From the NCBI GenBank assembly GCA_964016885.1, contig OZ024746.1, positions 34,596,001-34,660,000 of the forward strand: a stretch of DNA of 64,000 nt, given 5' to 3'. This DNA comes from Eledone cirrhosa. Taxonomy: Eukaryota. Below the pieces are notes generated by a model that was given only the letters and a program-made list of their open reading frames with translations, made no database searches and had not been told where the DNA came from. Shown here one piece after another: positions 15,458 to 60,391 of the stretch (the stretch's first letter is position 1; each line of letters begins with the position of its first letter). The position numbers and the translations under genes are program-made.

Positions 15458-15514
<57 letters not shown>

Positions 15515-15759
15515 GACACACATGGTGGATAGAAGGTCGAGAAATCGCTCCCGTAAGTTTTGATTTTTTAACATATTTAAATCAATCGTGAAATAACAAT
15601 TCTTAGTACAAATGTTGCATAAAACATCCGGCTTGAGTCCCACAAAATTCGGATCCATAATATATTGTTATATCGCTCAAATATTCAATTTTGTATTATA
15701 CATTTTATATTCAAAAAAGAAAATGGTTATAAATGGAAGAAAAACTCCCAAATAACAGC

Positions 15760-16260: not shown

Positions 16261-16529
16261 ACATTGTAGAATTCCCACTAAAAGAGGAAAACATCAAAAT
16301 ATATAAATAGACTGAATTGATGACCCGGTCAAAACCAAAAAAACTAAAATCAAAATGAAAGCAGCACAGCAACAACGGAAAACGTAAAGGAAATAAAAAT
16401 GAAGAGAAAAACAAACGGACGGACAGAGAAGGGAAGGGAAAAACTAAGTCAGACATTCAAATACTACATTACAATAATCCTTATGCTTATTCATTTTTGG
16501 GGTCTTTTCTGCCTGTTTGTTTGTTTGTT

Positions 16530-19339: not shown

Positions 19340-19606
19340 GTTTAAAATAGAGTGGAAAAGATGGGAAAGACCACTTACCGTACTTTTCGTAGAGGAGGGA
19401 TGGTTTTTACATCCCTTTTCACTTGATCGTCTGGTGAAGGGACCGTTGAATCGTCCCTTCGACTGGTCGTCGGCTCTTCTATGAGACTGTCTGAATATAC
19501 TTTTCGATTGATAGTTCCTCCTAGGTCCCTGAAATCACCAACTGCGTTGGGGAATTTCGTTTTAGTGTTTGTGTATTGTTTCTGTGCTATTTTTAGCAGT
19601 CTTATG

Positions 19607-21478: not shown

Positions 21479-21696
21479 GTTGTTTTTTTTTTGTTTAAAA
21501 TAAATATTGGGTACAAAACCCCAATAAGCAGCTATTTAACCCCGAAGGGCCAAATAACGGGCAGAAAGACCCCTCTCACGAGGAGGAGGGTGTTTTTGTC
21601 TACAAGTTCGTTAAAGTTTTAAACAATTTACAATTGTTATAGTGTTCAAAATTTACAATACCTTACAGAGCCGAGCCTCCGTCAACCATAGCATTC

Positions 21697-21726
<30 letters not shown>

Positions 21727-21727
<1 letters not shown>

Positions 21728-24167
21728 GAAATGGAAATGGAAATCCCCAGGAAAAGACAAAATACAAATGGAATTCCCCAGGAAAAGACAAAATACAAAT
21801 CTTTTGGATAAATGCCTTCACAGAGTCTCGTGAGCTGTTAGCCCAACTTTACAATGAAATAGTTAAGGAGTCAGAAAAGATACCATCATGGCTAGTTAAC
21901 GGCATTACATTCCTGCTTCCGAAGAATGATGAGACAAACAATCCCAAAAATTACAGACGGATAACTTGCTTGACCACAATGTATAAAATTTTAACATCAG
22001 TCCTAACTGAATACACATATGACCACCTGATAACAAATGACCTATTTCCCATTGAGCAGAAAGGGTGTAAACGAGGCTCATATGGCTGTAAGGATCAGCT
22101 TCTGGTTAACAAAATGATATTGGAAGATTGTTATAATAGACACAAAAATCTATCGATTGCTTGGATAGATTATAAAAAAGCATTCGATAGTTTGCCACAC
22201 AGTTGGATTGAAAAATGTTTAGAGATTTTCAAAATATCCCCCGTTGTCAGGAGGTTTTTGTCATTCAGTATGAAGACATGGAAAAGGACACTCCTTTTGA
22301 ATAGTGAAACAAAATCACTGGAAGCTGGAGAAGTCAATATTAATTGTGGAATTTTTCAGGGTGACTCTTTATCACCGCTTTTCTTCTGCATCGCACTTAT
22401 ACCATTAAGTAAAATGCTCAATGAAACAAAACATGGATATAAAGTCTATGACAAAACCATTAATCACCTGTTCTACATGGATGACCTGAGACTATTTGCA
22501 AAAAATGATGAACAATTGCAAGGGCTATTATCCACTGTGAAGCAGTTCAGTGATGACATTAAAATGGAGTTTGGACTAGATAAATGCGCCAAAGCAACGT
22601 TCACCAGAGGAAAGCTGCTGAAGAGTTCAGACATTAATCTTGATCGGGGGAACGTGATAAGAGAACTTGATCAAGAAAAAACTTACAAATATCTAGGTGT
22701 TTGTGAAGGAGGCGGAATCAAGCACTCGACAATGACGGAAAGGATAAGGAAGGAATGTTACCGCAGAGTAAGAGCAATCTTAAGAACGGAATTGAATGCA
22801 AGGAATAGTATCGATGCCATAAACACGCTTGCCATACCAGTAGTAACCTACAGTTACAATTTCATCAACTGGTCAAGCACAGAGATCCGTAGGCTCGATA
22901 CAAAAATTCGAAAATTCTTAACCATGCACAGAATGCATCACCCTAAGGCAGATATAGATAGAATATATCTCCCTAGGAAAGAAGGAGGACGTGGGTTAAT
23001 CCAGTTAGACATTGCGTTGAAAACTGCAACAATTGGATTATCTACATATCTAAGGGAAACACATGATTGGATGATCAAACTCGTTTTGAAACACGAAAGC
23101 ATCAAAAGATCATATTCCATTACAAAAGATGCACAAAGATACAGTAATGGACGACAAATTTCAGAAGTCCCATTTACTGCTGAAATGGAAAACACAGAAA
23201 AAGCAAAGCAGGTAAAAGTAACTGCAAAGAAAGAACTGCTACAGAAACTGGCTAAGAAATGGCAAGAAAAGCCTCTGTATGGAAAATACCCAGAGCGAGC
23301 TAACAATCCTGATGTTGACAAAACTTTAACCCATCAGTGGTTGGCATCCTCTGGACTGAAATCGGAGACTGAAGGACTGATTATATCGGCACAAGATCAG
23401 TGTCTGCCAACAAAAAATTACCAAGCCAACATAATAAAAAATGGGTGCAGCCCATTATGCCGTGTATGCAAAAAACAACCAGAGACCATTGACCATATAA
23501 TTTCAATGTGCAGTCCTATAGCTCCAACCGAATACCTAAACAGGCATGACAGAGCTGCACAATACATATATTTGATAATGTGTAAGCATTTTGACCTGCC
23601 CCATCAAAAGAATTGGTGGGAGCATCAACCACCTCCCATACTTGAAAAAGATCACATCTCAATCTTGTGGAACTTTAGCATCCAAACAGACCGAAAAATA
23701 GATGCAAATAGACCTGATATAATATTGAAGGACTTTAAAAAGAGGGTATGCCTGCTAATTGATATGTCTGTTCCAATAGACAAGAATGTATCTATAAAAA
23801 CATTTGAAAAATTGAGTAAGTATAAGGACCTGGAGATAGAAATTGGACAAATGTGGAAATTGAGAACTAAAACAATACCAGTGGTTGTAGGCGCTCTGGG
23901 AATGACACCTAAGGGGTCTAATGACTACTTATCGCAAATCCCAGGAAACCCGCGTATAGGAGAAATACAAAATATAGTACTAATGGGAACTGCCCATATA
24001 CTAAGGAAGATTCTGTCAATATAAGTACATCACAAGTCTAAACACTAAAGATGCATGTATGAATATGTATGTTCTTTCTTGAACATGGCGGACCTTGTTG
24101 TCTCTTGAGGTCACTGGTTGTGACTTGGTGATAACTCGTATGAACATAAAGCAAGATAAATGCTACT
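21727..24167 (+). mobile_element. Dong/R4 LINE family B, 5'-truncated just upstream of RT
   Basis: Lies between (AAT)n tracts; carries an uninterrupted RT-ZF-REL frame. Confidence 0.93.
21970..24024 (+). CDS. Dong/R4 reverse transcriptase + CCHC + restriction-like endonuclease (partial ORF)
   Basis: EQKGC, WIDYKKAFDS, GIFQGDSLSP, LFYMDDL, YKYLG, CRVC..H..C, RHD and RPDI..D motifs in 684 aa. Confidence 0.92.
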   Translation: MTTMYKILTSVLTEYTYDHLITNDLFPIEQKGCKRGSYGCKDQLLVNKMILEDCYNRHKNLSIAWIDYKKAFDSLPHSWIEKCLEIFKISPVVRRFLSFSMKTWKRTLLLNSETKSLEAGEVNINCGIFQGDSLSPLFFCIALIPLSKMLNETKHGYKVYDKTINHLFYMDDLRLFAKNDEQLQGLLSTVKQFSDDIKMEFGLDKCAKATFTRGKLLKSSDINLDRGNVIRELDQEKTYKYLGVCEGGGIKHSTMTERIRKECYRRVRAILRTELNARNSIDAINTLAIPVVTYSYNFINWSSTEIRRLDTKIRKFLTMHRMHHPKADIDRIYLPRKEGGRGLIQLDIALKTATIGLSTYLRETHDWMIKLVLKHESIKRSYSITKDAQRYSNGRQISEVPFTAEMENTEKAKQVKVTAKKELLQKLAKKWQEKPLYGKYPERANNPDVDKTLTHQWLASSGLKSETEGLIISAQDQCLPTKNYQANIIKNGCSPLCRVCKKQPETIDHIISMCSPIAPTEYLNRHDRAAQYIYLIMCKHFDLPHQKNWWEHQPPPILEKDHISILWNFSIQTDRKIDANRPDIILKDFKKRVCLLIDMSVPIDKNVSIKTFEKLSKYKDLEIEIGQMWKLRTKTIPVVVGALGMTPKGSNDYLSQIPGNPRIGEIQNIVLMGTAHILRKILSI

Positions 24168-24197
<30 letters not shown>

Positions 24198-24200
<3 letters not shown>

Positions 24201-24566
24201 TGCAGGGTCTGTGGGGAGAGAGAGGAGACTATGGCTCACATTGTATCCGTGTGTAAACACCTAGCCCAGACTCACTACAAATGCTGGGGACATGATGTGA
24301 TGGGTAGGGTGATCCACTGGCACCTATGCAAAGTAAAGAATTTACCACATTCTGAGAAGTGGTATGAGCATAAGCCAGAGTCGGTGATAGAAAACGATCA
24401 GGTGAAGGTGTTGTGGGATTTTAGGATACAGACGGACAAGAAACTGGAACACAATAGACCTGACCTGGTGGTTTTGGACAAGGAAAAAAGATCGTGCCTG
24501 ATCGTGGATGTGGCTTGCCCATTCGACACGAAAGTGCAGGAGAAGAAGAGAGAGAAAATTAACTGT
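24198..24566 (+). mobile_element. Dong/R4 family A-like endonuclease fragment
   Basis: CRVCGEREETMAHIVSVC...NRPDLVVLD, close to 13427-13795. Confidence 0.88.
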
Positions 24567-24619
24567 TACATGAATGTATATATAATTTATTTTGCAATAC
24601 ACTTTATGCTTAATTAAAA

Positions 24620-24932: not shown

Positions 24933-25506
24933 ATGATGATGATAATAATGATAATAATCAATATCAACATGATCAGTAACATCATGTGTAAAATGTTATA
25001 TAGTATATGTCTATTTTCTATTTACCAACGCCCACGAAATTCTCAATGGAAAAAAAAACGATGCAGTTTTCCAAACGCTAATCTGTCATTATCATTGTTT
25101 CAGATATATCATTATTTTCTTCAAGTGAAGGATAGATTTTACATCACACTATGACATTCTTATTTAAAGATACTAATTTCTACCTTAAGCAGTGTTGCAT
25201 TCGGTTACGTAATTATTACATAACGATCAATGTTTTCAAGAAAGACCAAACAATGGAAAATGTTTTTTTAAAATATATATTACCTTACATCCTAGGCATC
25301 ATTAGATTGCCATACCACCCGTGGCAGCCATCTTCATCCTGTAGTTCATATCATAAGAGGCAACGGGCCGGCTACAAAACGGATACCATTGGAGCCCAAT
25401 AATGTGAAAGGCTAACTTCGAAGAACTCATTAGAAATTAAAGCGAGTCATTGAGAAAAGTACAATATTATCCGATAAAGAAATGAGGGTGTTAATATTTC
25501 ATAATT

Positions 25507-25691
25507 GTTTCTACTTTAGGCACAAGGCCAGCAAATTACCCAGTACATTACTGGTACTTTATTTTATCGACCCCGTAAGGATGAAAGGCAAAGTTAACCT
25601 CGGCGGGATTTGAACTCAGACTGTAAAGGGACGTAACTATGCTAGAAAGCATGGCGTCCGACACTCTACCCATACTGCCAATTCACCGCCC
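25507..25691 (-). mobile_element. tRNA-derived SINE with 15-bp target-site duplication
   Basis: Full copy with A and B boxes on the minus strand; TSD taatatttcataatt at 25492-25506 and 25692-25706. Confidence 0.9.
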
Positions 25692-26344: not shown

Positions 26345-26525
26345 GACGCACTGGATTGACTGTATCGGTTGAGGCTTTGCAGCATAGAGTTGTGGTCCTT
26401 TACGGTCAGAGTTCAAATCCTGCCGAGGTTACCTTTACCTTTCATCCTTACGGGGTCGATAACATAAAGTACCAGTAATCCACTGGGATAATTTTCGGCT
26501 TTGTGCCAAAAGTAGAAATAATTAA
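26345..26525 (+). mobile_element. tRNA-derived SINE, diverged copy
   Basis: gagttcaaatcctgccgaggtt...ggggtcgataacataaagtaccag...gtagaaataatta. Confidence 0.82.
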
Positions 26526-26557
26526 TATATATATATATGTGTGTGTGTGTGCGTGTG

Positions 26558-26649
<92 letters not shown>

Positions 26650-27929
26650 AAAGGAAACCAACAAAGCAAACAACGCAGTAAAATGAAGAAATATAATAGA
26701 TTGCCGCTTTATATAGTAGCGAGATAGTCTTAAAATTCAGGATACTAGTCTTTTATCAGGTTATATATGAAATAGAAAGAGGTAGAGGGTGAAGGGGAAG
26801 GAATGGAAAACATTCAAGATAAAGAGTGTGTTCAGTTACTTTTGGGGGTGTATTCAACAGTAAAGCGAGGATGCACAACATGCTGTTTAACTTCTGTGTG
26901 TTTGTGTATGTGAGTGTATGTGTGTTTATGTGTGTGTGTGTATGTGTATGTTTGCCTGTGTGAGAATGTGTGTGCAAGTGTTGGGTTTGGTTGTGGTGGG
27001 CATGTGTGTGATTGTGTTGTGTTATGATATAATGAGGAAGACTGTTATTAGAGGAAATAATTCCAACCGAAATTATAATTTTTGCATGCAAGAAATGCGA
27101 GTGACTGAAGTTCACACTGTAGTAACAAGATGCAGATACGTTGGAATGGAGATGGAAAATAAAATGTAGTGGCTGGAAACTGTTCGCATTACCAAATATA
27201 TTAAAAGGAAGTCAATTGGCAGTCTTATGGTTCTCAAAACCATTCTACGTGTGTCTTCCCTGATCCTTTTTAGAAACGTTTTATTATACACTGGAAAGAT
27301 TTTCTCCGAATATCGAAGTTATTATCAGCAGAAAATATTCAATGAAGCCTCTGTGAAAGTATTCTTTTACAATGAAATTATCAATGTGCAATTACAGAAT
27401 TAGTCTATCGCTGTGGCTTTGTGGGTGTGCTGCAGACTTCCGTGCATTGCAAAGTTAGTACATAAAAAGTACAAAGTTATGCATAAAATATTCTGTACAT
27501 TAAATCAGCATAAGTAGCGTCTCGTGCATAAAATATAATTTGAAAATTTCAAATAAGTGAGATTATTCATGCAGTTAGTAGGCAAAAACAAAATAAACAA
27601 TTGATCAAATTCTAAAACCATGGATAACAAGTATATTTCTAATAAGTAAAAGTGTCATCGAATTTCTTGAGAGATACAAACGGTGTGTAGGAATGTGTTT
27701 AACCCAATTAGGTTCAGTATTCAGCAAGACCATTCTATATATTATTGTCTGGTAATATAAGTACATGTGTCGTCTTAATAGGTTATCTCGCATGTCATAA
27801 ACAGAAGACAGCAGTTATTAGATTACGTCCTTGCATACTTACATACATATATATATGACATGTGTACACAGCTATCACACTTCAAAATTATATATGTGTA
27901 TGTATATATATTTATATATATACATACAA

Positions 27930-28340
27930 AATATATAAATTACCGCACATGGCATCCTAGCGGGTATCACAAACCTACACCACTAAAAATAGCAGCCAGG
28001 TTTACTCGACATTTGAAATAGCACAACAAATTAACGGAGCTGAATATATAAAAGGTTAGGAACACAAAGGTATATATTGAGTTAGGAACTCAAAGGTATA
28101 TATTGAGTTAGGAACGCTTTTATATTCTATTATAATATACGGCTCAGAAATATCTCTTTCTTAGAGCTATTTTACTGTAAGAGACTATTTTGAGTTCCTA
28201 ACTCAATATATACCTTTGATATATTTGGCTCCGTTAATTTGTTGAGCTATTTCAAATGTCGAGTAAACCTGGCTGCTATTTTTAGTGGTGTAGGTTTCTG
28301 AGACACGCTAGGATGCTGTGCGGTATTTTATATATTTTAT
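27930..28340. repeat. Imperfect fold-back element
   Basis: About 27935-28095 pairs with about 28189-28332; internal ~25-bp tandem repeat caaaggtatatattgagttaggaac; TA-rich flanks. Confidence 0.82.
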
Positions 28341-28380
28341 ATATAGCATACTTAGATATGTCTAGGATATTAATTCATCA

Positions 28381-28451
28381 CCCACTGATGAGCTTGGATT
28401 GGTATTTCTATTCACAATTAACTTTGCGAAACAACAACAGTGTTGTCTGGG
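28381..28451 (+). ncRNA. Type I hammerhead ribozyme with full stem III
   Basis: ccca CTGATGA GC...GC GAA ACAACA-acag-TGTTGT C tggg: GUC triplet, predicted cut after 28447. A partial copy lies at about 31945-31975 (-). Confidence 0.78.
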
Positions 28452-28625
28452 TGGTTGGTAGTTACCACAATTCCGGTTTGTATTTATTTTCTTAATTCTT
28501 TCTTAAATTGAGACAAGCGAACCCAATAGTCTATAGTTAGTATTCTTTTCACCTTAGCGAATCAGCTCCTTACGATTTGAACACATATATGTATATATCT
28601 GTGTTCGTTTTTCTTTTATATTCTA

Positions 28626-31345
<2,720 letters not shown>

Positions 31346-31363
31346 ATATATATATATATATAT

Positions 31364-31697
31364 ATAGTTTTAATATAGATGAGATTCTACAGGACTAGAA
31401 CTATCTCATTCATTTGAAATCATCAGGAATCTGGGTATCAAAAAATAAATATGGTATTTATAGGTCTCTACAAGTGGTAGGAGAGGGTGGGGAGTGGGAT
31501 GGGTGCAGGTCATTGGTTGATAGAAAAGGGAATTCATTAAAAGCTAATTCGACAAAGCTATAGTTTATTTTTATTTTTATTTTTATTTATTTATGTTTTT
31601 AGAGTAACATTTTTATTTTTTGATACCCAGATTCCTGATGATTTCAAATGAATGAAACAGTTCTAGTCCTGTAGAATCTCATATATATTAAAACTGT
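31364..31697. repeat. Fold-back (~88-bp arms) with hammerhead on each arm
   Basis: 31364-31452 pairs with 31609-31697; flanked by (TA)n. Confidence 0.88.
31629..31679 (+). ncRNA. Type I hammerhead ribozyme
   Basis: agattc CTGATGA tTTC-aaat-GAAt GAA ACAG-ttctagtc-CTGT A gaatct; GUA triplet, predicted cut after 31673. The left-arm copy has GAAA changed to GAGA. Confidence 0.82.
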
Positions 31698-31761
31698 TAT
31701 ACTCTGCTATGTATTGAGTACCTTACTTACTGTGGTTACCTCCGATTCAACCCGGAATAAC

Positions 31762-31829
<68 letters not shown>

Positions 31830-35061: not shown

Positions 35062-35141
35062 TATATATATGAATGAATGTTACAACACTATTTCAGTATT
35101 AAGTACTCATTTCTCTCAGCTGTATACGAATATACATATAC

Positions 35142-35205
<64 letters not shown>

Positions 35206-35428
35206 TAAAATAATAGATTAATGTTTAAGCAAATAATCGCTGCTTCCACCCTTCAGGGTATCTTCAGAGAAGATCTCGCTAAGGGTGAAAGCAGCGATTC
35301 TTTGCTTAAACTTTAATCTGTTATTTTAATAAATATTTGGTCTACGGTTCTTATATATTTGACATATATTCATCCTTATCGAGCCCTCTTTGGATTTTAG
35401 TCTTCAAATTTATTATTATTACTATATA

Positions 35429-35460
<32 letters not shown>

Positions 35461-35530
35461 CGTATATGTATATTCGTATACGGCTGAGAGAAATGAGTAC
35501 TCAATACTGAAATAGTGTTTTAACATTCAT
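35062..35530. repeat. Nested inverted repeats: outer ~80-bp arms around (TA)n containing a second fold-back
   Basis: About 35065-35145 pairs with 35458-35530; the inner 35200-35332 hairpin belongs to the 3011-3305 family. Confidence 0.85.
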
Positions 35531-35724
35531 TTTACAAACGAGATATAGTTGGTGTGAGTGTGTATATGTGTGGTTATGCGCGCGCGCGTGTGTGTGTGTG
35601 TCTGTGTGAGAGTATGTGTGTGTGTGTGAGAGTGTGTGTTTTAAAATGAGAAAAGTTGACTGTGTGAGAAATTTTTAATGGTAGATAAAGTGCCGTACGT
35701 GAGTCTCTGCAAAGATGTAAATAT

Positions 35725-35902
35725 AATTGTTTCTACTTTAGGAACAAGGCCAGCAATTACCCCTGCATTACTGGTACTTTATTTTATCGACCCCGTAAGG
35801 ATGAAAGGCAAAGTCAACCTCGGCGGGATTTGAACTCAGATCGTAAATTGACGTAACTATGCTGGAAAGCATGGCGTCCGACCCTCTTCTGATACTGCCA
35901 AT
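35725..35902 (-). mobile_element. tRNA-derived SINE
   Basis: Highly similar to 25507-25691 and 41264-41440. Confidence 0.88.
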
Positions 35903-35961
35903 ACCATATGCTACTCAGTGATTGAAATTAGTATATTTCAGACGTTATTTTGACAATATTG

Positions 35962-36779: not shown

Positions 36780-38122
36780 GTGGGTTCGTCTTAGGTAGAA
36801 GTGTTTAGACGGGGTCCGTATTTGTTAATGAAGTAAGATTCCTTGCTGATGCGCTGGGTGTGGGTGGCATTATCTTTAAATTTGTAGAGGGGAAAGATTC
36901 TGAAGTCGGGATGATTTTGGGCGGCACAGGTATCAATGTGTTCACTCAGTGGTATTTTCCTGTATTCCCGTATTTTAATTTGGGATCTATGGACAGTCAT
37001 GCGTTGGCGGAGGCTGTTTTTGGTCTGGTCTATGTATTGTTCTCGACAACCTGAACAAGTTAATACATATATTAGATTTTCCGATGCACATGTGATATTG
37101 TGTTTTACTATAAAACGTTGTCCATCTTTGAAATAGAATTCCGAACCCTCTATTAGGTTGATGCAAATGCCACAGTTGGGTCTATCGCATTTTTTGACTG
37201 TGGGTTTCGTTGTTGTGGTTGGCAGTACTTTGGCATGTGTTAAGATGTTTTTCATTGACTTGGATTGTCTTTTGCTCTTTATGATATCGTGTGTTCGTAG
37301 AATTTGGTTCATTCTATGGTCCTTTTTCAATACAGGGATGTTCTGGAGGATGGTGTCAAAGGCCTCATTGTTGAGGGGGTTGTGTGTGGAGATGTATGGA
37401 AGAGCTTTTAGTTTTGGTTGATTTACTTTAGGGTGTCTAAGGTCCTGGGTACTGAGTTTTAGGGCACGTTGGATTCCATTGTCAATTAGTGATGCAGGGT
37501 AGTCCCTGCCTATGAGTGTGTCCTTTAGTTCTTGTAGCCGTAAGTAGCAGATGTTTTTATTCTCTTGGCTAAGTTGTAGGGAATATTAATGTTAACGTGT
37601 CTAGGGTGGCAAGAGTTGAAGGGGAGATATTGCTTGGAGTCTGTGGGCCTGTAGTATATGTCTGTTTCTATTTTTTGTTATGGATCTTAATGAGGATGTC
37701 GAGGAAGGGGAGTTGTTGATGGCTGTATTCCATCGTGAAGTTAATATTTGTGTTGAGCCCATTTATAAGGGTGTGAAATTCTTTAAGTTTTTCGATGTTT
37801 TTGTGCCAAAGGATGAAGCAGTCATCTAGATATCGCTTCCAGTTCCTTTCAATTTGTAAGTGGAGGGTGTTTCCAAATTTGTTTAGGACATTAGTGTAGA
37901 GGGTGATTTTCAGGTATCCCATGACTAGGTTGGCATAAGTAGGGGCTGTTTTCGTTCCCATAGCGGTCCCAGATTTCTGCCTGTAGGGTTTGTTATTGAA
38001 AACGAAGTAATTGTTCTCCAAGATAAATTTGAGTCCCTCTATCACAAATTCTTTTTTGATGCGTTGTGGGAGTTCATTGTGGAAATTATCCAGCCAGAAT
38101 TGGATAGCTTCTATTCCTAGGT
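36780..38122 (-). mobile_element. Neptune-like PLE, 5'-truncated (RT C-terminus + GIY-YIG)
   Basis: GTAMGTKTAPTYANLVM, RYLDD, LPFLD; Cys-rich linker KCDRPNCGIC; NLIYVLTCSGCREQYIDQT...R...H; stops and frameshifts. 38220-38690 is probably its inverted terminal repeat. Confidence 0.88.
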
Positions 38123-38152
38123 CGCAGCATCGAACACCTTACTACTACTACT

Positions 38153-39729: not shown

Positions 39730-42270
39730 TATACTAAATGTCACGCCAGTTAGAAAACTATAACCCTACCCTGCCCACACAGATACTGTTCCAAAATCGT
39801 AGGAACACAAAGGAAAAAAATCTCCAACCCGGACTATCAACAAACCGAACCTCAATACGTCCGAAACTTCATACAAGACCACACAACAACAAGGGAAATG
39901 CCATTAGATATAATAATACCATTGAAAAAACATTCAAGAAAAAAATATTTTTTAGACCACGGCTACAGGACCCTCGACACCCGGTGGCACAAACTGATTT
40001 TGAAAAACCGAAAATAATCAACCTTTCAAATACAAACCTCTCAGGCCAACAAGTAAAAATTCTCTCAAAAGGATTGAAATTCACACCAACACCACAATAC
40101 TCTAACCTCAATGAGTAAAATACGATATCTCACACTTCTGTACAAAATTACGTCTGACAGAGGAATTCTTTGACAAGGCGAATAACGACCAATCAATTGT
40201 ACGGAATAAAAGCAGCTACAACCCACCAAAAGGTAGAAACAGAGTTCTGGACAAATTTTGTGACCACATAGCTACTTTTCCATACCATGAACTACCGCAA
40301 CCTAAACCCAAACCCAGCACGAGTCGAAGGGAATGGGAGATTATCCATGAACTAAAAACAATACGGACATTATAATTAAGGAAGCGGACAAGGGAAGTAC
40401 TGTTGTCATTGTGGATGCTGAAAAATATAAAAATTCTATGTTCTCTCTCTTACAAAATAATAATTACTATGAAACAGTAAAAAAACTACCAGCAATCAAA
40501 AACAATGACCAGATTAAACACACTGATATGTCGATACCAGGAATACTTAACTAAAAAGGAACGCGATTATTTAACATATGTTGAATACAAAACCAGCAAC
40601 CTTTACGGACTTCCGAAGATCCACAAGTGTAAAATAATTAACGATGCCTGTAAACAATCCACCTCAGCCTGCGTGAACACAGACCTTAAATTAAGACCGA
40701 TTGTAGCGGGCCCACAATGTGAAACACAGACTGAGCAACTTTATAGACATACTACTAAAACCAATTCTCAAAACCAAACATTGTAAGAGAAGATCTGGAC
40801 CTCTTAAACCACCTCCCCAAACATGTCAACAATGACACTATTATTGTGTCTTCCGATGTAGTGAACATCTACGCAACGATCCCACGCCAATACGGACTAG
40901 AAGCAATAGGATTATGGCTAGAGAATACCCCAATGAGATACCTGGCAGAATAGACAAATACTTCATCACCGACGGATTAAAATTTATCTAACAGAACAAC
41001 TTTTTTATTTCGATCAAAGCAGTACTTACAAACAAATATCGCGGACTGCAATGGGTACAAAAGCCGCTCCAACTTATGCCAACTTAGTCATGGCACATTT
41101 AGAAGTCCAGATATATGAACAGTCCAAATCAAAATACGGATTGAACTTCCACAAATATTTATCATAGAAATGGAAACGCTACTTAGATGATTGTCTCATT
41201 CTTTGGTCCCACACACTCGACCAACTGAATGATTTCAAAAACTTAATAAACCGCATCAATAATTGTTTCTACTTTAGGCACAAGGCCAGCAATTACCCAG
41301 TGCATTACTGGTACTTTATTTTATCGACCCCGTAAGGATGAAAGGCAAAGTCAACCTCGGCGGGATTTGAACTCAGATCGTAAAGGGACGTAACTATGCT
41401 GGAAAGCATGGCGTCCGACCCTCTACCGATACTGCCAATCCATCAATAATCACATCCAATTCACAATGGAATACAGCCAAGATCAACTCCCATTTCTGGA
41501 CATCTTAATCTTTAAAAAACACACAAATATTGAAACTGACATGCACTACAAACGAACAGATTCCAAACAATACCTGCTATTCACCTCCAACCATCCAGAG
41601 CACATGAAGACGAACATTCATTTTAACCTAGCAAGAAGAATTTGCACAATTGTCTCCAATTGTGAAACGCGAAATAAAGACTTCAAGAACTAAAGGAAAT
41701 TCTACTCGAAAGATAGTACCCACCATTACTAAATAATGGAATAGAAAGGGCTATCGCAATAGGAATTGATGAATTACGAAAACAGAAACAAATTCAAGGT
41801 ACGTCCAATATTCTATCATATATCTCAACACACAACCCAAGAAATACGGACGCTTACAACATTATTCACAAGAACATCCCACTACTGAAACAAGACCCAA
41901 GAATGAACAAAACTCATGAAACACACAAAATAATACAACCGAAATCACCAATGCTAAATTACCTACCACAAACCCACAACCAACTGTCAAACAATGTGGT
42001 CGCTCTAATTGTGCAACCTGCCCTCACATCATTGAAGGCAACACGTATACATTTAAATCAGGACAAAATTTTGCTTCGCCAACAGTTCATCGCCAAAAAT
42101 TACGAGATCCAACCACGATACAGATACCATTAAGCGCACATCTAGACATATGCGCAAGTAATAAGACGCCCAAATTCCAAGTCTTCCCATTTTACCTTTA
42201 CGCTGACAATGCAACAGAACAAATACGAATAAAAAAGGAAAATATGTTTATTCAAAAATATTCCTACTAA
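39730..42270 (+). mobile_element. Neptune-like PLE, near full ORF but decayed
   Basis: LSKGLKFTPTP, IKEADKGS, LYGLPKIHK, LRPIVAG, TAMGTKAAPTYANL, RYLDD, LPFLD motifs across broken frames; interrupted by a SINE. Confidence 0.88.
41264..41440 (-). mobile_element. tRNA-derived SINE inserted in PLE RT, 10-bp TSD
   Basis: TSD catcaataat at 41254-41263 and 41441-41450. Confidence 0.92.
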
Positions 42271-43207: not shown

Positions 43208-43345
43208 TGTTACATCCCTTTACGGTCTGAGTTCAAATCCCGCTAAGGTTAACTTTGTCTTTCATCCTTACGGCATCGATAAAATAAAGTACCAGTAATA
43301 CACTGGGATAATTGCTGGCCTTGTGTCAAAAGTAGAAAGAATGAT
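43208..43345 (+). mobile_element. tRNA-derived SINE, 5'-truncated
   Basis: gagttcaaatcccgc...gataaaataaagtaccag...gtagaaa. Confidence 0.82.
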
Positions 43346-43407
43346 TAATATTCGAAAAACTCAGATTACATTTATTGTATTCAGCCATGTAGAGCGACAT
43401 TTTCTTT

Positions 43408-49580: not shown

Positions 49581-50510
49581 ATTTATTAATGAATGGACAG
49601 TTATATGACCTCCTTTTCACCCAAGAGACATACAGATACATATGCAAATATTGTGGGTCAACATTCATTACAGCATTTAGAGTGACAGTACACACTTAGA
49701 GATTACATTCATATTAAAATGTACAATAAAAAATAAAAAATACAGGTTAAAATACAACATGAAAATAAGCGGTTATATAGTGCAAATGTTATATGTGTGG
49801 CAAGCACGTGCGTCTTGTTTATATAGTGTGGCAGAGAGTTACGTGTAGTAGAAGCACTTAGGTAGGTAAACAAGAGTGTTAGGTTGGTTGATCTGGTGGC
49901 AAATTCTTTATATGTTTGTTATAGTCTGTGTGTGGAGAAATGATATAAGCATTAAAAATAGTGCAAGCATTAAAGATATTAAAAGTATTGGAAATGCACA
50001 GCGAAGGGGTGATATGGACTTCATGTACTTCGACATTTTCATAGTCAGGGGAGTCTATTTTTCAGATTATATGCCCCTCACATAATCCACGACAATTCGA
50101 TATTGAGCGTTTGATAATCCAGTTATATTTTATATAACTGCTCTGTAATTCATCTTATGTTTTTAAATTGAGCTACTTAACTTGCTGGTAATAAGGTAGT
50201 AATATATTACTGCCTACCACTATTTAGGGTTTGTATAAAAAAATATATATAACTGCAAAAGGTTTTTGTATTTACATAACAATAAATAGTATAATTAATA
50301 CTATATATATGTATGTATACAAACAAACATACATATACACACATACATAATCATATACATCTTATACATAAACAAATACATACACACATACATATATACA
50401 TATATATATATGTGTTTGTATATGTGTATATGTATGTGTGTATTGCATGCATGTATGTGCATGTATGTGTATATATGTATGCTTGTTCATGTATATATAT
50501 ATATATATAT

Positions 50511-53500
50511 TTATACTCTGGGAGGGTTATGTTGCCAATAAGAAACACACGCACCAGTTGCTTTCACTTCAATTTATTATAATAAATTTGTAAGAAATTT
50601 ATAAATTTATAAATTTCTGGTGTTTTGGTTGGTTCCACAACCAGATAGTTGTTTATATATTGTCATAGTTCTTTCGTCACACACTCTGTGACCTCTTCAG
50701 TGACTGGGGATTCCTTTCTTTGTTTCTGTGCCTCTCCTTTGTTCTGTCCTACGCCATTTTGTTTCTGTGTGTGTGTTGTGTGCTCAGTCTGCGCATGCGC
50801 CACATCCAGGTGTCTGTGTGTGTGTATGTTCATTTATTTATTTGTTTATTTACATGTTACTGGTTGGTTGTTTGTTCTATGTGTGTGTGTGTTTTCATTT
50901 TGTCCTTAATGGTAAGTTGTGATGTTGCTGTTCCACTCATATTTTCTATTTAAATTTGGTTGTAATTCTTTTATGTTTATTGCCTCTGTGATTTGTCTAA
51001 ACATTGCGTCTTTTCTGTGTGTAGATTCTATTTTTATTTCTATGTTCTCTAATTTACCCTTGTGTTCTATTTTAGCATGTTGGTAGAGTACAGATGATTC
51101 TTTACTATCTTGAAGGTCTCGCCAGTGTTCATTTATCCGTTCCCCTACACTACGATCTGTCTCACCTATGTACACTATATTTTTGTCTTTACGTTGGCCT
51201 TCAGTACATCTTATGCTATACACGACATTTCTAGTTTCACAATTAATATGGGGGCTTATTTTACAGGTTATACATTTCTTATCTATACATGAGGGTCTTT
51301 GAAAAGGGTATGTATTGCTAATAAGTGTTTTTACGGGGGTACCTGTTCTTTCTACTATCTTAATATTGAGTTTATGTTTATCTAGGGCCCTTCTAAATTT
51401 GTAAGCTAATTCACCTCTAGGGGTTGTATCGATGAACATTACACTCTGGTATTTATTGCTATCATACCATGAGTTTATTCTATTAGCCTTGTTCCTAGTT
51501 CTTTCTATTCTATTCCAAAATTTGCTCCTATACAAGGGGCAGGTCCCATTTATGTCATTATTTACCATTTTTACCCATTTGGTTCTGGCTCCTCTATACA
51601 CTCTGATTTTATCTCTCTGATTGTAGCCAGATAACTGCATACGGTGGATGAAGCGTTGTATGTGTCTCTCTAGTTCTTCGGGGTTGCACATGCGGGACAC
51701 GTTTCTCATCACCCGTACCAAATCCGGAATCAGGATGTTGATTTTGGTATGGTCCGAAACGGCCGAGTTTCGGTGGATCAGATATTTGGAAGTCATGGGT
51801 TTGGCATTATGGGAATGGAGGATTTGTTTTTTGTTATTAATGGTATCTAACAAGAGCTATGTGTCTAGTACAGGTAATCGATGGTGGGGGTGTTTACTTG
51901 GGTAGTCTATAGTAACTTTAATGCTCTGGTTCATGGAGTCAGCTATTTGCTGGATGCTTTCCATAGTGTTTTTCTCTAGTTTCTGACTGTTCTCTAGTGG
52001 GGGTGTCTTAACTACGATGTTTATATCATCAACGTAGCGGGAGTACATTATCAGGGTTAAGAGGTCTTCTAATTATTCTTTAAGTTTAAGTTTAAGTCTA
52101 CTGTCCCACCATACCATGAATAAGTTAGCTATGTCGCCTGCAATGCTAACACCAATGGCTGCTCCTTCCTCTTGGGCATATGTTTTTCCATTAAATTTGA
52201 ACTTATGTTCCTTAAGGGCTAGTTTTATGCTGGCCCCTGCCGCATGTGCAATCATTTTCTTCAGTTCATCGTGGTTTTCGGGTGTCCGTATGTCTCTGGT
52301 CCACCCGTTCAATCTATCTGTGTTGGTTTTCTTGGCCATTGAGGTAATGGTAGGTGGTCTGCCTTTTGCTGGTCTTGTAGGGCACAGGTTGCTAAGGTCA
52401 TATGTGTCTAGGTAATTATTACTATAGGTAAGTTTAAGTAGGAGTGCCAGCTCACTGGTATCAATCCCACGGAACTCAACATTGCTCTCACTGATCATTT
52501 CTACGCATTTCTCCACAGCAAAATCCACGTCAATAGATGGATACAGGGACACAACATCCATGCTACCTATTATGCAGTTTGTTAGGTCCCTAGATCGGTT
52601 ACCATCGCCGATTCTGCTGAGGAGGTCCTCCGTGCTATCACATACATCTGGGGACATTTAAATGATGGCGCGTATGATCAGGGAGAGGAAGTAGGACAGT
52701 CTGTAGTTACTAGCAATGTTAGCTCCACAGACTGGCCGTGTTGGTGTTCCCGCGACAGGGTCACTGCCGGTTTTATGGTCTTTTCGAAGCCCATACAACG
52801 CCGGCACGTCATTGTTCCAGGCCTGGAAGTTGTTGGTAGTCCTTTTGTAGGGCTCCATTATATTCGTCCACATCACCATATGGGCATTGAGGGCTTTTTC
52901 TCTATCCTCATGCTCCTGTGGTGTTACCTCTCTTGTGTTAGTGATGTCGGATTGCATTGCCAGGATGTAGTTTGGCAGGCTGTCAACCGACATTCTGCCA
53001 GACTTGAATGTTGGAAAGCATGCTATCTCTCCATTACGCGAGCGCTGCATGAGCTTACGCAAGCCATTTGCAGATTTTTCTCCCAGTTGCTGGGCCTCCA
53101 TTCTATTATGCTTATTGCTATACTGTTCTATAATATTTCTAAGTTCGTATCTATCTATACTAAATTGTGCTTCTGTTTGTTCATCGACCTGCGACGGCAA
53201 TTGCGTGCGTTTGTTAAATTGTAAAGTCGTGGCGTGGACTCGTCGCAGGTCGAACGATTTATCGGAGGGATTATAAAAAGTAGAGTTCCAGGCTGCTGCT
53301 TTATGTGTACTAGTGCTATTGTTATTGTTAGTTGTGTTGTTTCTATTTCTATTTCCACAAACAGCCTCATGGTCGTTTCTATGTCTCTCATAATTACTCC
53401 TGTCTCTTTCCAATGGCTCATTGTTGTTATCTACCCTATTGTGTGTGTCTGTGTGTTCGTCTTGGTTATTTTCTTTGTCCTTAGTTTCCCTTCTCCTTTT

Positions 53501-54425
53501 AATCCTATTACTTTCCCTTATTTCTGTGATTTCTGTGCTACTGTCATTACATGTTTTCTGTGTTTGTGTGTTTGTTAAGATTGTGGTGGTGGTGAGAGGC
53601 ATTGAATGTGTGTGTATTGTTGTTTTTGATGTGTGCTGATGTTGATGTCTGTTGTTGTTGTCTCCGTGTGTGTTATTATTGTTGTGTGTGTTGTTATTGT
53701 TGTTCGTGTCTGCGTGTCTGTTGTTGTTGTTTCTGGGTATGTTATTATTGTTATTGTTGTTGTTGGTGTGTGTTGTTGTTATTGTTGTTTGTGTCTGTGT
53801 GTCTGTTGTTGTTGGGATGTGTGTTGTATATGTGTGTGCGTATATTGTTGCTTTTGTTTTTGTTTTTGTTTTTGAAGCTCCAGCGTAGTTTTGTAAATGA
53901 TGTTTCTATTTCTGACAGACAACTAATCATATTTACCTTCTTGAATGTCGCAAATTTCGGGGGTAGACGTAATACAGATAACTCATCGTCATCTATTACT
54001 GTGTTGCCGTATATATTTGTGTTGTTGTTGTTGTTGAAATCATCTGTTAATGAGGTGTCGGCCATACTTATACCGTCAATTTTGTCGGGATATCTATTGG
54101 TATTCTCTACAGTATCCTGTTTTAGTTTCTTGCTAAAGTGCTTATCACATTCTTGAGTAATGTACTGTTCTTCAGGACGTATAAGGCTTATAAATATTAG
54201 TTTCTCTCTTGGTGTGGTGATCCTAGCTATTTTTTGTATTAGGTTACGCTTATCTTTTTCTTGATGACTTAATTCTCTATAGATCTTTTTTTATGTTTAG
54301 AATTAGTGTTCGTTTTAGCCTATTTGCTTGTTTTTTGGTGAGTTGTAATCTTCTGATGTCGGTGTTGATGGTGTTGGTGTAAACTCGACGAGGCACATTC
54401 TTTTATGATGTGTAGTTGTCGAGAT
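50511..54425 (-). mobile_element. Penelope-like element, left arm of head-to-head pair
   Basis: KSGR, YGLRKDHK, TRPVCGA, GSMDVVSLYPSI, EGAAIG, RYVDD, LPVLD, then VVYSIRC...VYIGETDR...R..EH (GIY-YIG). HHR at 50662-50704 (-). Confidence 0.92.
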
Positions 54426-54439
54426 GTTATGGTTTTTCG

Positions 54440-57400
54440 TAGACAACAGAAACAAGAAACTAAAGTGGCTTAAGCAGATAAAGCTAAATCAGGATACTGT
54501 AGAGAATACCAATAGATATCCCGACAAAATTGACGGTATAAATATGGCCGACACCTCATTAACAGATGAGTTCAACAACAACAACAACACAAATATATAC
54601 GGCAACACAGTAATAGACGACGATGAGTTATCTGTATTACGTCTACCCCCGAAATTTGCGACATTCAAGAAGGTAAATATGATTAGTTGTCTGTCAGAAA
54701 TAGAAAAATCACTTACAAAACTATGCTGGAGCCTCAAAAACAAAAACAAAAACAAAAGCAACAATATACGCACACACATATACAACACAAATCCCAACAA
54801 CAACAGACACACAGACACAAACAACAATAACAACAACTCACAAACCAACAACAACAACAATAATAACATACCCAGAAACAACAACAACAGACACGCAGAC
54901 ACAAACAACAATAACAACACACACAACAATAATAACACACACGGAGACAACAACCACACACATCAACAACAGCACACATCAACAACAACAACACACACCC
55001 ATTCAATGCCTCTCGCCACCACCACAATCTTAACAAACACACAGACACAGAAAAGAAGTAATGACAGTAGCACAGAAATCACAGAAATAAGGGAAAGTAA
55101 TAGGATTAAAAAGGAGAAGGGAAACTAAGGACAAAGAAAATAACCAAGACGAACACACAGACACACACAATTGGGTAGATAACAACAATGAGCCAGTGGA
55201 AAGAGACAGGAGTAATTATGAGAGACATAGAAACAACCATGAGGCTGTTTGTGGAAATAGAAATAGAAACAACACAACTAACAATAACAATAGCACTAGT
55301 ACACATAAAGCAGCAGCCTGGAACTCTACTTTTTATAATCCCTCCGATAAATCGTTCGACCTGCGACGAGTCCACGCCACGACTTCACAATTTAACAAAC
55401 GCACGCAATTGCCGTCGCAGGTCGATGAACAAACAGAAGCACAATTTAGTATAGCTAGATCCGAACTTAGAAATATTATAGAACAGTATAGCAAGAAGCA
55501 TAATAGAATGGAGGCCCAGCAACTGGGAGAAAAATCTGCAAATGGCTTGCGTAAGCTCATGCAGCGCTCGCGTAATGGAGAGATAGCATGCTTTCCAACA
55601 GACAAGTCTGGCAGAATGTCGGTTTTCAGTCTGCCAAACTACATCCAGGCAATGCAACCCCACATCACTAACACAAGAGAGGTAACACCACAGGAGCATG
55701 AGGATAGAGAAAAAGCCCTCAATGCCCATATGGTGATGTGGACGAATATAATGCAGCCCAACAAAAGGACTACCAACAACTTCCAGGCCTGGAACAATGA
55801 CGTGCCGGCGTTGTATGGGCTTCGAAAAGACCATAAAAAGGGCAGTGACCCTGTAGCGGGACCACCAACACGGCCAGTCTGTGGAGCTAACATGGCTAGT
55901 AATTACAGACTGTCCTACTTCCTCTCCCTGATCATACGCGCCATCATTTAAATGTCCCCAGATGTATGTGATAGCACGGAGGACCTCCTCAGCAGAATCG
56001 GCGAGGGTAACCGATCTAGGGACCTAACAAACTGCATAATAGGTAGCATGGATGTTGTGTCCCTGTATCCATCTATTGACGTGGATTTTGCTGTGGAGAA
56101 ATGCGTAGAAATGATCAGTGAGAGCAATGTTGAGTTCCGTGGGATTGATACCAGTGAGCTGGCACTCCTACTTAAACTTACCTATAGTAATTATTACCTA
56201 GACACATATGACCTTAGCAACCTGTGCCCTACAAGACCAGCAAAAGGCAGACCACCTACCATTACCTCAATGGCCAAGAAAACCAACACAGATAGATCGA
56301 ACGGGTGGACCAGAGCCATACGGACACCCGAAAACCACGATGAACTGAAGAAAATGATTGCACATGCGGTAGGGGCCAGCATAAAACTAACCCTTAAGGA
56401 ACATAAGTTCAAATTTAATGGAAAAACATATGCCCAAGAGGAAGGAGCAGCCATTGGTGTTAGCATTGCAGGCGACATAGCTAACTTATTCATGGTATGG
56501 TGGGACAGTAGACTTAAACTTAAACTTAAAGAACAATTAGAAGACCCCTTAACCCTGATAATGTACTCCCGCTACGTTGATGATATAAACATCGTAGTTA
56601 AGACACCCCCACTAGAGAACAGTCAGGAACTATAGAAAAACACAATGGAAAGCAGCCAGCAAATAGCTGACACCATGAACCAGAGCATTAGAGTTACTAT
56701 AGACTACCCAAGTAAACACCCCAACCATCGATTACCTGTACTAGACACAGAGCTCTTGTTAGATACCATTAATAACAACAAAACAAATCCTCCATACCCA
56801 TTATGCCAAACCCATGACTTACAAACATCTGATCCACAGAAACTCGGCCGTTTCGGACCATACGAAAATCAACATACTGATTGCGGATTTGGTACGGGTG
56901 ATGAGAAACGTGTCCAGCATGTGCAACCCCGAAGAACTAGAGAGACACATACACCACTTCATCCACCGTATGCAGTTATCTGGCTACAATCAGAGAGATA
57001 AAATTAGAGTGTATAGAGGAGCCAGAACCAAATGGGAAAAAATGGTAAATAATGACATAAATGGGACCTGCCCCTTGTATAGCAGCAAATTGTGGAATAG
57101 AATAGAAAGAACTAGGAACAAGGCTAATAGAATAAACTCATGGTATGATAGCAATAAATACCAGAGTGTAATGTTCATCGATATAGCCCCTACAGGTGAA
57201 TTAGCTTACAACTTTAGAAGGGCCCTAGATAAACATAAACTCAATATTAAGATAGTAGAAAGACCAGGTACCTCCGTAAAAACACTTATTAGCAAGACAT
57301 ACCCGTTTCAAAGACCCTCATGTATAGATAAGAAATGTATAACCTGTAAAATAAGCCCCCATATTAACTGTAAAACTAGAAATGTAGTGTATAGCAAACG

Positions 57401-58161
57401 ATGTACTGAAGGACAATGTAGAGACAAAGATATAGTGTACATAGATGAGACAACTCGTAGTGTAGGGGAACAGATAAATGAACACTGGCGAGACCTTCAA
57501 GATAGTAAAGAATCATCTGTACTCTACCAACATGCTAAAATAGAACACAAGGGTAAATTAGAGAACATAGAAATAAAAATAGAATCTACACACAGAAAAG
57601 ACGCAATGTTTCGACAAATCACAGAGGCAATAAACATAAAATAATTACAACCAAAATTAAATAGAAAATATGAGTGGAACAGCAACATCACAACTTACAA
57701 TTGAGGACAAAATGAAAACACGCACAAAGAACAAACAACCAACCAGTAACATGTAAATAAACAAATAAATAAATGAACATAAACGCACACAGGCACCCGG
57801 ATGTGGCGCATGCGCAGACTGAGCACACAACACACACACACACAGAAACAAAATGGCGTAGGAGAGAACAAAGGAGAGGCACAGAAACAAAGAAAGGAAT
57901 CCCCAGTCACTGAAGAGGTCACAGAATGTGTGACGAAATAACTATGACAATATATAAACAACTATCTGGTTGTGGAACCAACCAACCAACCAGAAATTTA
58001 TAAATTTATAAATTTATTATAAATTTATTATAATAAATTGAAGTGAAAGCAACTGGTGCGTGTGTTTCTTATTGGCAACATGACCCTCCCAAAGTATAAC
58101 GATATCGGTTTCAACACACGATTTCAGATAAAGAATCTTTCTAAACAAATTCAGAAACGAA

Positions 58162-58165
<4 letters not shown>
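54440..58165 (+). mobile_element. Penelope-like element, right arm of head-to-head pair
   Basis: Same motifs in ORFs 54424, 55196, 55952 and 56814; ends in (TA)n. Confidence 0.92.
57906..57948 (+). ncRNA. Minimal hammerhead in PLE 3' region (mirror 50662-50704 -)
   Basis: gtca CTGAAGA gGTCACA-gaatg-TGTGAC GAAA (T/G)AAC TA tgac. Confidence 0.8.
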
Positions 58166-58228
<63 letters not shown>

Positions 58229-58390
58229 TATGTGTATATATGTATATATATGTACATCAATACGCATCTTTTTCCATTTCTCTGAGGGCTCTAAACCCCA
58301 CAATCAGGCTAGAATTTATTTAGTAAAATATATGGTGGAAGCTCTATTTTCAAATTTCAAACTTGCTCGCTGTTTCAAAACATACTTACT

Positions 58391-58477: not shown

Positions 58478-58483
58478 ATATAT

Positions 58484-58680
58484 GAAAATGTATCACTCCG
58501 ACGGCAGAGCTCAAGCCGTTACGACGACTATTTCTGAAGTCCAGAAATAGCCGTCTTAAACGGCTTGAGCTCTTCCTTCGGGGTCATACATTTTCCTATT
58601 ACCCACTCTACTACAATAATTATTGAGTACCATGGTGCGTAATGGTCGATCAGGTTTCTTACCACAACTCCTTCGTTATA
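58484..58680. repeat. Short fold-back + tail of the 1478-1625 family
   Basis: About 58484-58536 pairs with 58542-58595; flanked by (TA)n. Confidence 0.75.
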
Positions 58681-58722
58681 TATATATATATATATATGTG
58701 TATGTATATATATATATACATA

Positions 58723-58784
<62 letters not shown>

Positions 58785-58789
<5 letters not shown>

Positions 58790-59330
58790 CTGCTTATCTC
58801 GATATTAAGTTCTGGTATATCAAATTATTACCATAGAACCACCTTAAATCATAGACACACTATATATTTCCGGGGGTACATTGTACCCTCAGATATATAT
58901 TAACCTTTTTCAATAATCTCCAGTATATAGAGATACACATTTGTTGTTCTATTTATTTACTATAAATCTTTTTTTAGTGGCGATTATAGACGGCGAGTCT
59001 ACGATTTCCCGCCTTCACTATACACCAATGTATTACGGGTCACTTTCACGACCTTTTAGACCTGTATTATTTGGAGTGAGGTCATATATTTTGTCGTTCC
59101 TGGGGTTTTTAACCCTAGGATAGGAAAATGCTTCTCTGATGATCGTTGCTTTTCCATTAATATCCTCGTGATATTTAATGTTTTACACCGTAAAACTGTA
59201 CAGTTAGGGCCATTTGAATAGGTAAATATTTATATTATATTTTTTAATGTTGATTAATTCTAATTGTATATTAATTTTGATTAATTTTGAAAAATTGGTT
59301 GAATTTTACTTGTTCTGCTTATCTCGATAT
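58785..59330 (+). mobile_element. 525-bp non-coding monomer with 21-bp terminal redundancy and decayed hammerhead
   Basis: ttgttctgcttatctcgatat at 58785-58805 and 59310-59330; HHR-like fold at 59126-59215; (TA)n on both sides. Confidence 0.72.
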
Positions 59331-59439
59331 ATATATATATATGTGTGTGTGTATGTATGTTTATATGCATGGATACGTATATATGTGTATGTGCATGTGT
59401 ATGTGTATATATATATGTATGTGTATATATGTATATATA

Positions 59440-59490
<51 letters not shown>

Positions 59491-59665
59491 GTATATATGT
59501 ATATACGTATATATGTATATGTGTATGTGTGTATATATATATATTTATATATATATACACACATATAATATATTTATATATATATATATATATATAAATA
59601 TATTATATGTGCGCATATATATATAAATATATATATATACACACATACACATATACATATATACG

Positions 59666-59740
<75 letters not shown>

Positions 59741-59825
59741 AAAGTTATATTTAAAATTGTTGGGTTACAACTAGTAAATATTTATAACTGGTATAAAAGC
59801 ACTCGACAAATATTTGGAGTATATT

Positions 59826-60391
<566 letters not shown>

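Follow-up and report, generated by a model that had tools for sequence, protein, structure and literature searches.

The 546-bp insert at positions 58785 to 59330 of the window, by which we mean the whole analysed stretch of 64,000 nucleotides, is best explained as a dead monomer of a non-autonomous Penelope-like element (PLE), that is, a metazoan non-LTR retrozyme, which a PLE protein would have pasted into a (TA)n tract. We give this reading a probability of roughly 0.7. Non-LTR retrozymes and PLE pseudo-LTRs are the known classes into which the element is best read, and neither had been named in an earlier note on this DNA. Because G12 of its hammerhead core is replaced and two complete units are lacking, we call the copy a likely dead monomer of a non-LTR retrozyme family and do not count its membership as proven. 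The window itself is AT-rich animal DNA, dense in (TA)n tracts and in fragments of retroelements, and includes PLE-type RT/GIY-YIG genes. The PLE-type coding region at 36794-38138 has 14 longer relatives carrying HTH_animal (14/14), RVT_1 (12/14) and GIY-YIG (4/14), and the C-terminal piece of an inverted PLE pair at 50368-58249 matches RT/GIY-YIG/HTH_animal clusters in the Atlas (0.95-0.96). In a direct Pfam search of the window ORFs, GIY-YIG went undetected and RT matches stayed below the cutoff. The best named relative of one window protein comes from Octopus bimaculoides (52% identity); this one match points to a probable cephalopod host.

The insert is bounded by an exact 21-bp direct repeat (58785-58805 and 59310-59330) with a period of 525. 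The 546 bp between the TA tracts thus comprise one 525-bp non-coding unit and 21 bp of the next, which bears out the earlier description of a monomer with 21-bp terminal redundancy between (TA)n tracts. With up to three mismatches allowed, the 21-mer has just two matches in the 64-kb window, against 0.01 expected; its first T and last AT can equally be assigned to the TA tracts. The left flank is a (TA)n target microsatellite (58677-58785, called by TRF), and the right flank a (TA)n / TA-TG microsatellite (59327-59738). On the plus strand, the 5' copy of the repeat represents the end of a partial preceding unit and is followed by the 525-bp monomer (58806-59330), whose longest stop-free frame measures 68 codons, also when the monomer is doubled end to end. 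The 3' copy, the putative RT start and 3' end, leads into (AT)n. Just 3' of the unit junction lies a predicted plus-strand hairpin (58809-58839; 5+4 bp with a 2-nt bulge, then CAC), a candidate RT-recognition element. An AU-rich long hairpin (59216-59315, plus strand) shares its last 6 nt with the first 6 nt of the 3' repeat, and the region around it (59207-59330) folds with a z of -4.04.

Searches with blastn and nhmmer found no second copy of the 525-bp unit in the 64-kb window, so the word 'family', used for it in the earlier note, is here attached to a single copy. The unit contains no RT/GIY-YIG ORF of the kind that marks an autonomous EN+ PLE, and ARAGORN called no tRNA, which argues against a tRNA-SINE head. 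Two exact-pattern scans of bacterial/archaeal genomes returned 0 matches. Insertion into (TA)n, a partial-tandem end and a hammerhead near the 3' end are all present, as in the PLE insertions described in PMC8557442, and the short non-coding unit with one type I hammerhead is that of a non-LTR retrozyme. Tandem arrangement of at least two units with complete hammerheads is absent from the insert but present in the 541-bp array described below; the same is true of an inverted 5'-truncated partner copy.

The hammerhead of the 525-bp unit lies on the plus strand, just downstream of a 9-bp hairpin (59099-59119). Its stem I 5' strand (59128-59135) pairs at seven of eight positions with the 3' strand (59206-59213) and leaves the open ends of the three-stem structure in stem I. 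The core box CUGAUGA (59136-59142, CTGATGA in the DNA) supplies C3-U4-G5-A6-N7-G8-A9 of the consensus given in PMC3088659. The 49-nt stem II domain (59143-59191) opens with a U.U at the core, continues with four of the next five pairs and an internal loop, and closes with a fully paired (6/6) inner hairpin (59159-59175). The second core box (59192-59195) reads AAAA instead of G12-A13-A14-A15, so that position 12 is an A, as the earlier note had recognized. Stem III (59195-59204) is a 10-nt palindrome, and the GUU triplet (59203-59205) provides the A15.1-U16.1 pair and H17; cleavage is predicted between 59205 and 59206, 125 nt from the 3' end. The palindromic stem III, GUU site and inner stem II hairpin that had been proposed were thus all recovered.

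Two further features had not been described in the earlier note. A predicted pseudoknot joins a 5' strand (GGAAAA, 59123-59128), whose last base is also the first of stem I, to TTTTCC in the stem II internal loop (59150-59155). The 10.1-11.1 position, expected as a base pair, holds a U.U mismatch here and C.A in 4/5 copies of the 541-bp unit; U.U is reported as tolerated, and an active natural U10.1-U11.1 mismatch described, in PMC3088659. For stem III, no cis hairpin is predicted in either unit, and the calculated self-duplexes (-13.4 kcal/mol for the 525-bp unit, -9.0 kcal/mol for the 541-bp unit) make both palindromes fit, on the modelled energies, the dimer model put forward for PLE hammerheads (PMC4209133, PMC6765202). 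The free-energy fold uses the pseudoknot strands as a nested helix in preference to the hammerhead, under an energy model that cannot draw pseudoknots, and an inhibitory alternative fold of these strands is possible. With one predicted hammerhead lacking G12, the 525-bp copy is probably inert.

A sister element, also bounded by (TA)n at both ends, occupies 28734-31346. It is built of 541-bp units in two outward-pointing arms, a minus arm (28734-30051) and a plus arm (30052-31346), and bears five hammerheads, all with GAAA (5/5). Comparison of its full-length units shows differences at 7-12 of the roughly 541 positions. Most variable columns are private (19/22); of the three shared ones, two form one CpG and one is arm-specific. 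The left genomic end reads ...TCTCTCATAC followed by (AT)n, and the right end lies ~114 nt past the junction motif; relative to the cut, the 3' ends fall at 80 and 194 nt, one per arm. The proposal that both elements share a 3' end running into TA repeats therefore holds for one of the two array ends and fails for the other. At 30052-30070, a 14-bp slipped duplication of the minus arm precedes the start of the plus arm, which lies at most 5 nt from the predicted cut and is possibly a trace of the 5' end of a cleaved RNA. A hairpin parallel to that at 58809-58839 is found at 30692-30715. In the sister element, insertion into TA targets, two inverted arms with 5' truncation and the two different 3' ends match the PLE pattern reported in PMC8557442, and the array is a better experimental object than the 525-bp copy.

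Compared directly, the hammerheads of the two units align without gaps over 98 columns, based on three of the five sister copies (the two with one-base deletions were left out), and keep an identical core-to-core spacing of 56 nt. Stem III reads ACTGTACAGT in the 525-bp unit and ACTAATTAGT in the 541-bp unit, each 10/10 self-complementary, and both have the GUU site. The predicted 6-bp pseudoknot occupies the same place, 5' of stem I and in the stem II internal loop, with different sequences (GGAAAA/TTTTCC and GAAAAG/CTTTTC, respectively). In a 23-pair structure that includes the pseudoknot, drawn with both sequences in view, 19/23 pairs are kept in the 525-bp copy and nine have both partners changed (two in the pseudoknot, two in stem I, three in stem II and two in stem III), compared with 0-2 in slid-partner controls; this is a comparison of two lineages and carries no covariation statistic. 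Within that scope, it supports the earlier claim of homologous, covarying hammerheads. When the core was held fixed and the rest shuffled, 18/22 pairs were attained in 3/100000 trials. The non-core identity of 34/85 (40%) was attained by 593/100000 shuffles and at 705-907 of 120896 real positions. Given these two nulls, the hammerhead structure is far better conserved between the units than the sequence.

The pairing null also bears on the possibility that AT-rich repeat DNA has produced the hammerhead shape by chance, which we consider very improbable. A descriptor for type I hammerheads that allowed any base at position 12 matched the 525-bp site, the five 541-bp copies and a pair at 59927/60112, and had matches in 0/150 block-shuffled windows. 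A chance origin would agree with the missing G12, with the unremarkable local fold of 59118-59216 (z -0.70) and with the Rfam results: no hammerhead reached the gathering score in the window, none was among the 150 of 220 matches listed at E<=10, and none appeared at E<=10 when the 525-bp or 541-bp unit was scanned alone.

Somewhat less improbable, yet still unlikely, is a convergent hammerhead in two unrelated families, with the 21 bp as the ordinary TSD of an island in a TA tract. Unanchored searches indeed fail to link the families. A CM built from the five 541-bp hammerheads gives the 525-bp motif 17.6 bits (E=0.15, not significant), below a microsatellite and an antisense match; the 525-bp unit is not among the 18 matches of a 541-bp junction CM at E<=10; and neither nhmmer nor blastn returns a cross-family match between the units. 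In addition, real AT-rich tiles attain similar global scores. Against convergence stand the identical spacing and the ungapped 98 nt, as well as the shared pseudoknot and stem II interior, which were attained in 4/2000 shuffles and 1/2000 background segments. A comparison with six further window hammerheads did not show these two features there (local scores of 8-14, as against 27). Furthermore, the 21-mer pairs into the element's own hairpin. Common ancestry of the two hammerheads is very probable.

Similarity between the units extends, with less certainty, beyond the hammerhead. Both show the same order of parts: an upstream hairpin, the hammerhead, an AU-rich hairpin, the junction motif and a GTTC..GAAC-CAC hairpin. 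The upstream hairpin occupies the same place in a different sequence and, in the 541-bp unit, is drawn from a predicted fold. The register defined by the junction is the best of 105 rotations, and with the hammerhead removed its score is attained by 0/500 shuffles. The 100 nt after the 21-mer resemble the 100 nt after the 541-bp junction (3/2000 shuffles, 3/2000 background segments); among seven window sizes tried, 100 nt alone is clearly beyond the controls, and its score is attained by 25-66 of 24180 window tiles. Shuffle tests of whole-unit similarity gave 0/300, 0/500 and 0/1000. These overstate the similarity, which is not beyond that of real AT-rich DNA, because real window tiles approach or exceed the scores: the best tile reaches 30 versus 34 for the whole unit, and the hammerhead-removed score is attained by 4/4756 tiles with the 525-bp unit as query. 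Against the other 541-bp copies, the 525-bp unit scores 14-33 and not 34. We consider common ancestry of the whole units probable, at lower confidence than that of the hammerheads. A tile at 32101 that resembled the 541-bp unit (score 22) was rejected as a chance match without the hammerhead motif.

These comparisons clarify the nature of the 21 bp, which are better read as a partial second unit than as a target duplication. They end in the 541-bp junction motif, the sequence that follows shares the post-junction likeness, and the terminal hairpin of the element itself is closed by their first 6 nt; they are thus more probably element sequence than the ordinary TSD that had been held out as an alternative. 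The insert might instead be the 5'-truncated 3' end, or pseudo-LTR, of a longer autonomous PLE, preceded by a very short second copy of 21 bp, in which case no 525-bp unit would exist. We consider this unlikely. It is in keeping with PLE insertions being heavily 5'-truncated, with partial tandems and tails of 30-40 bp at either end (PMC8557442), with the palindromic-stem-III hammerheads that PLE ends bear (PMC4209133), and with the several such PLE ends in the window. It does not account for the likeness of the 100 nt after the 21-mer to an internal junction of the 541-bp array (best of the seven sizes) or for the similar lengths of the 525-bp and 541-bp units, and no ORF remnant was detected in the 525-bp unit (no tblastx match elsewhere in the window). 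Similarity of the 525-bp unit to any PLE end within the window was likewise not found.

For the preferred reading of a dead non-autonomous monomer, the position of the cut site constrains the template. Since the insert runs through the predicted cut site, the template would have been a circle or an uncut multimer and not a cut linear monomer. We infer the following pathway. A tandem source locus would be transcribed, and two adjacent hammerheads in the transcript would dimerize via the palindromes of their stems III and adopt a fold with the 6-bp pseudoknot between the stem I 5' flank and the stem II internal loop, leading to cleavage after GUU that is probably slow. The PLE protein would then receive a ligated circle or else a multimer that had been cut incompletely, with odds near even. 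At the target, the GIY-YIG domain would nick (TA)n, and the RT would initiate within the RNA, at the ...CTCGATAT junction. This point lies 125 nt beyond the cut in the 3' direction and just upstream of the small hairpin, which comes after the junction only if the RNA is circular or tandem. Copying would pass the cut site and stop 21 nt into the second round or unit. The resulting copy, with one hammerhead and A12, could not release unit-length RNA and would have decayed since.

Properties of PLE proteins are consistent with this pathway. Craig et al. (2021, PMC8557442) describe PLE insertions that target (TA)n, form partial tandems and carry inverted truncated arms and tails. In Frangieh et al. 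(2024, PMC11167929), a PLE protein in vitro starts RT internally, downstream of the hammerhead, requires RNA 3' of the start, acts on AT-rich targets and uses uncleaved RNA as template. The RT start given there lies 111-118 nt into the ORF and the cut at +26, which by subtraction places them ~85-92 nt apart. Pseudoknots of the kind predicted here were shown to be needed for fast hammerhead cleavage by Perreault et al. (2011, PMC3088659). Less favourable to the pathway is that in Xenopus just 1/9 tested retrozyme dimers cleaved in vitro (bioRxiv 10.64898/2026.07.22.740005). In that preprint, the connection of animal retrozymes with PLEs is drawn from their co-occurrence and from the phylogeny of pseudo-LTRs.

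The earlier note proposed a stricter form of this pathway, in which a ligated 525-nt circular RNA is copied through one full turn and 21 nt more. The data agree with a circular template and agree just as well with an uncleaved tandem transcript, and we place the strict rolling-circle version somewhat below even odds. It would explain why the insert corresponds to the cut-to-cut monomer in circularly permuted form, with identical 21-bp ends, and it agrees with the accumulation of metazoan retrozymes as circles (PMC7229834). The mostly private variation in the 541-bp array, as if one template unit had served each arm, points weakly in the same direction, although such star-like variation would also arise from a young, homogeneous source array. 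On the other side, uncleaved RNA yields the same product and was the dominant substrate of a PLE protein in vitro (PMC11167929). The start of the 541-bp plus arm close to the predicted cut would suit a partly cleaved linear multimer; as a single case, it weighs little.

A broader possibility is a previously undescribed radiation of ~530-nt circular retro-RNAs with two diverged branches in this host, a pseudoknotted, dimer-activated hammerhead whose core mismatch is missed by standard models, and a conserved hairpin, just past the RT start, that only a circle or tandem would contain. We regard this as doubtful; the radiation that the earlier note suggested is unproven on one copy and two lineages. 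If true, the hairpin would let the PLE RT roll round a circle while priming in (TA)n, and the element would offer a small natural substrate for testing PLE copying of circular RNA.

The class of element is already known, while this variant of the hammerhead is uncatalogued. Like the metazoan non-LTR retrozymes described by Cervera and de la Pena (2020, PMC7229834) and Li, Clavereau and Pollet (2026, bioRxiv 10.64898/2026.07.22.740005), the 525-bp element is a short non-coding unit with one type I hammerhead. Those retrozymes likewise occur as monomer, dimer and multimer copies with a proposed dependence on PLEs, and their monomers are possibly dead offspring. Its length falls inside the 51-972 bp range of vertebrate retrozyme families and exceeds the 220-390 bp of coral, mussel and axolotl units. 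In contrast to metazoan retrozymes, the 525-bp copy stands alone as a monomer and has A at position 12. Within its ~49-nt stem II are an internal loop and an inner hairpin, and a predicted Watson-Crick pseudoknot takes the place of loop 1-loop 2 contacts. The main text of PMC7229834 nowhere uses the word 'pseudoknot'.

The hammerhead further resembles those of PLE pseudo-LTRs, as described by Cervera and de la Pena (2014, PMC4209133) and in PMC8557442 and PMC11167929. Shared features include a type I core near the 3' end, a palindromic stem III implying dimers, a long helix II, an extra nucleotide after A9, (TA)n targets, partial tandems, a 3' end ~80-190 nt past the cut and, for the 541-bp array, inverted arms with two 3' ends. 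It departs from them in a 10-nt palindrome, in an extra base also on the 3' side of stem II and in a 10.1-11.1 mismatch instead of the conserved G-C. The 525-bp unit also differs from PLE pseudo-LTRs in having no RT/GIY-YIG ORF and no detectable similarity to the PLE ends in the window. Base pairing that connects the stem I side with stem II is also a feature of pseudoknotted hammerheads; it is estimated in ~40% of hammerheads in the portion of PMC3088659 considered. The pseudoknotted examples in that portion are prokaryotic or phage, or single-copy in vertebrates, whereas the one here is predicted, repeat-borne and dimer-type and joins the 5' flank to an internal loop. The filters given there would reject both the 525-bp and 541-bp motifs for a core change or a mismatch beside the core.

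In the literature covered, outside which lie Lunse et al. (on dimeric PLE hammerheads) and the bioRxiv supplements, we found no description of cephalopod retrozymes or of a pseudoknotted dimer-type hammerhead. A search for Penelope-like, hammerhead and octopus returned Craig et al. alone, and one for cephalopod and hammerhead ribozyme returned Craig et al. and a twister paper. As the class is known, the finding is not a new biological principle. The variant, with its long stem II, predicted 5'-flank pseudoknot, 10.1-11.1 mismatch and 10-nt stem III palindrome, is held by compensatory change across two families, and such hammerheads may be under-counted in animal genomes because Rfam misses them. 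In the 525-bp and 541-bp elements, footprints of PLE-style insertion are directly visible, and the two mark out a putative RT start site and a candidate cis hairpin. A 0.5-kb RNA would thereby be enough to test whether a circle or an uncleaved multimer serves as the PLE template.

Further type I hammerhead shapes were found in the window by motif scans at 913, 3517/3624, 4247, 28385, 31635, 50700 and 59927/60112, and six other window hammerheads lie 52-165 nt from a TA tract. The inverted pair at 50368-58249 is a broken PLE with 3786-bp arms (95%) and RT and GIY-YIG-like regions; each outer end has a minimal hammerhead shape (50700, minus; CTGAAGA at 57910, plus), and related end fragments occur at 3934-4463 and elsewhere. 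A second broken PLE lineage at 36794-38138 (minus strand) has a Cys-rich linker before its endonuclease-like region, and motif scans found no hammerhead at its end. Between TA tracts, an inverted pair at 59740-60212 (98.5%) carries one type I hammerhead per arm (59927, minus; 60112, plus) and has unequal outer ends, a PLE-like tail pattern. Another inverted pair at 3423-3718 has a hammerhead in each arm (3517, 3624), 3' ends 141 and 52 nt past the cut, and a core context similar to that of the 59740-60212 element. Type I shapes beside TA tracts at 28385-28460, 31366-31763 and 913, none of which reaches the Rfam gathering score, include longer stems III at 28385 and 31635. Fold-back segments adjoining TA tracts (1180-1404, 2708-2997, 3083-3304, 27921-28345, 35072-35531 and 58480-58599) are probably truncated PLE-type insertions.

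Other repeats are present as well. A dispersed repeat of 140-185 bp, in which ARAGORN called no tRNA gene, is found in at least six places (6856-7163, 25494-25687, 26374-26532, 35715-35907, 41255-41443 and 43208-43352). Nested non-LTR retrotransposon fragments span 12487-24617, and the one at 21643-24024 lies beside (AAT)n with an RVT_1 match (E 4.5e-27). We take this fragment to be of the type with RT and a restriction-like endonuclease, and that at 18099-21535 to be of the apurinic-endonuclease type.
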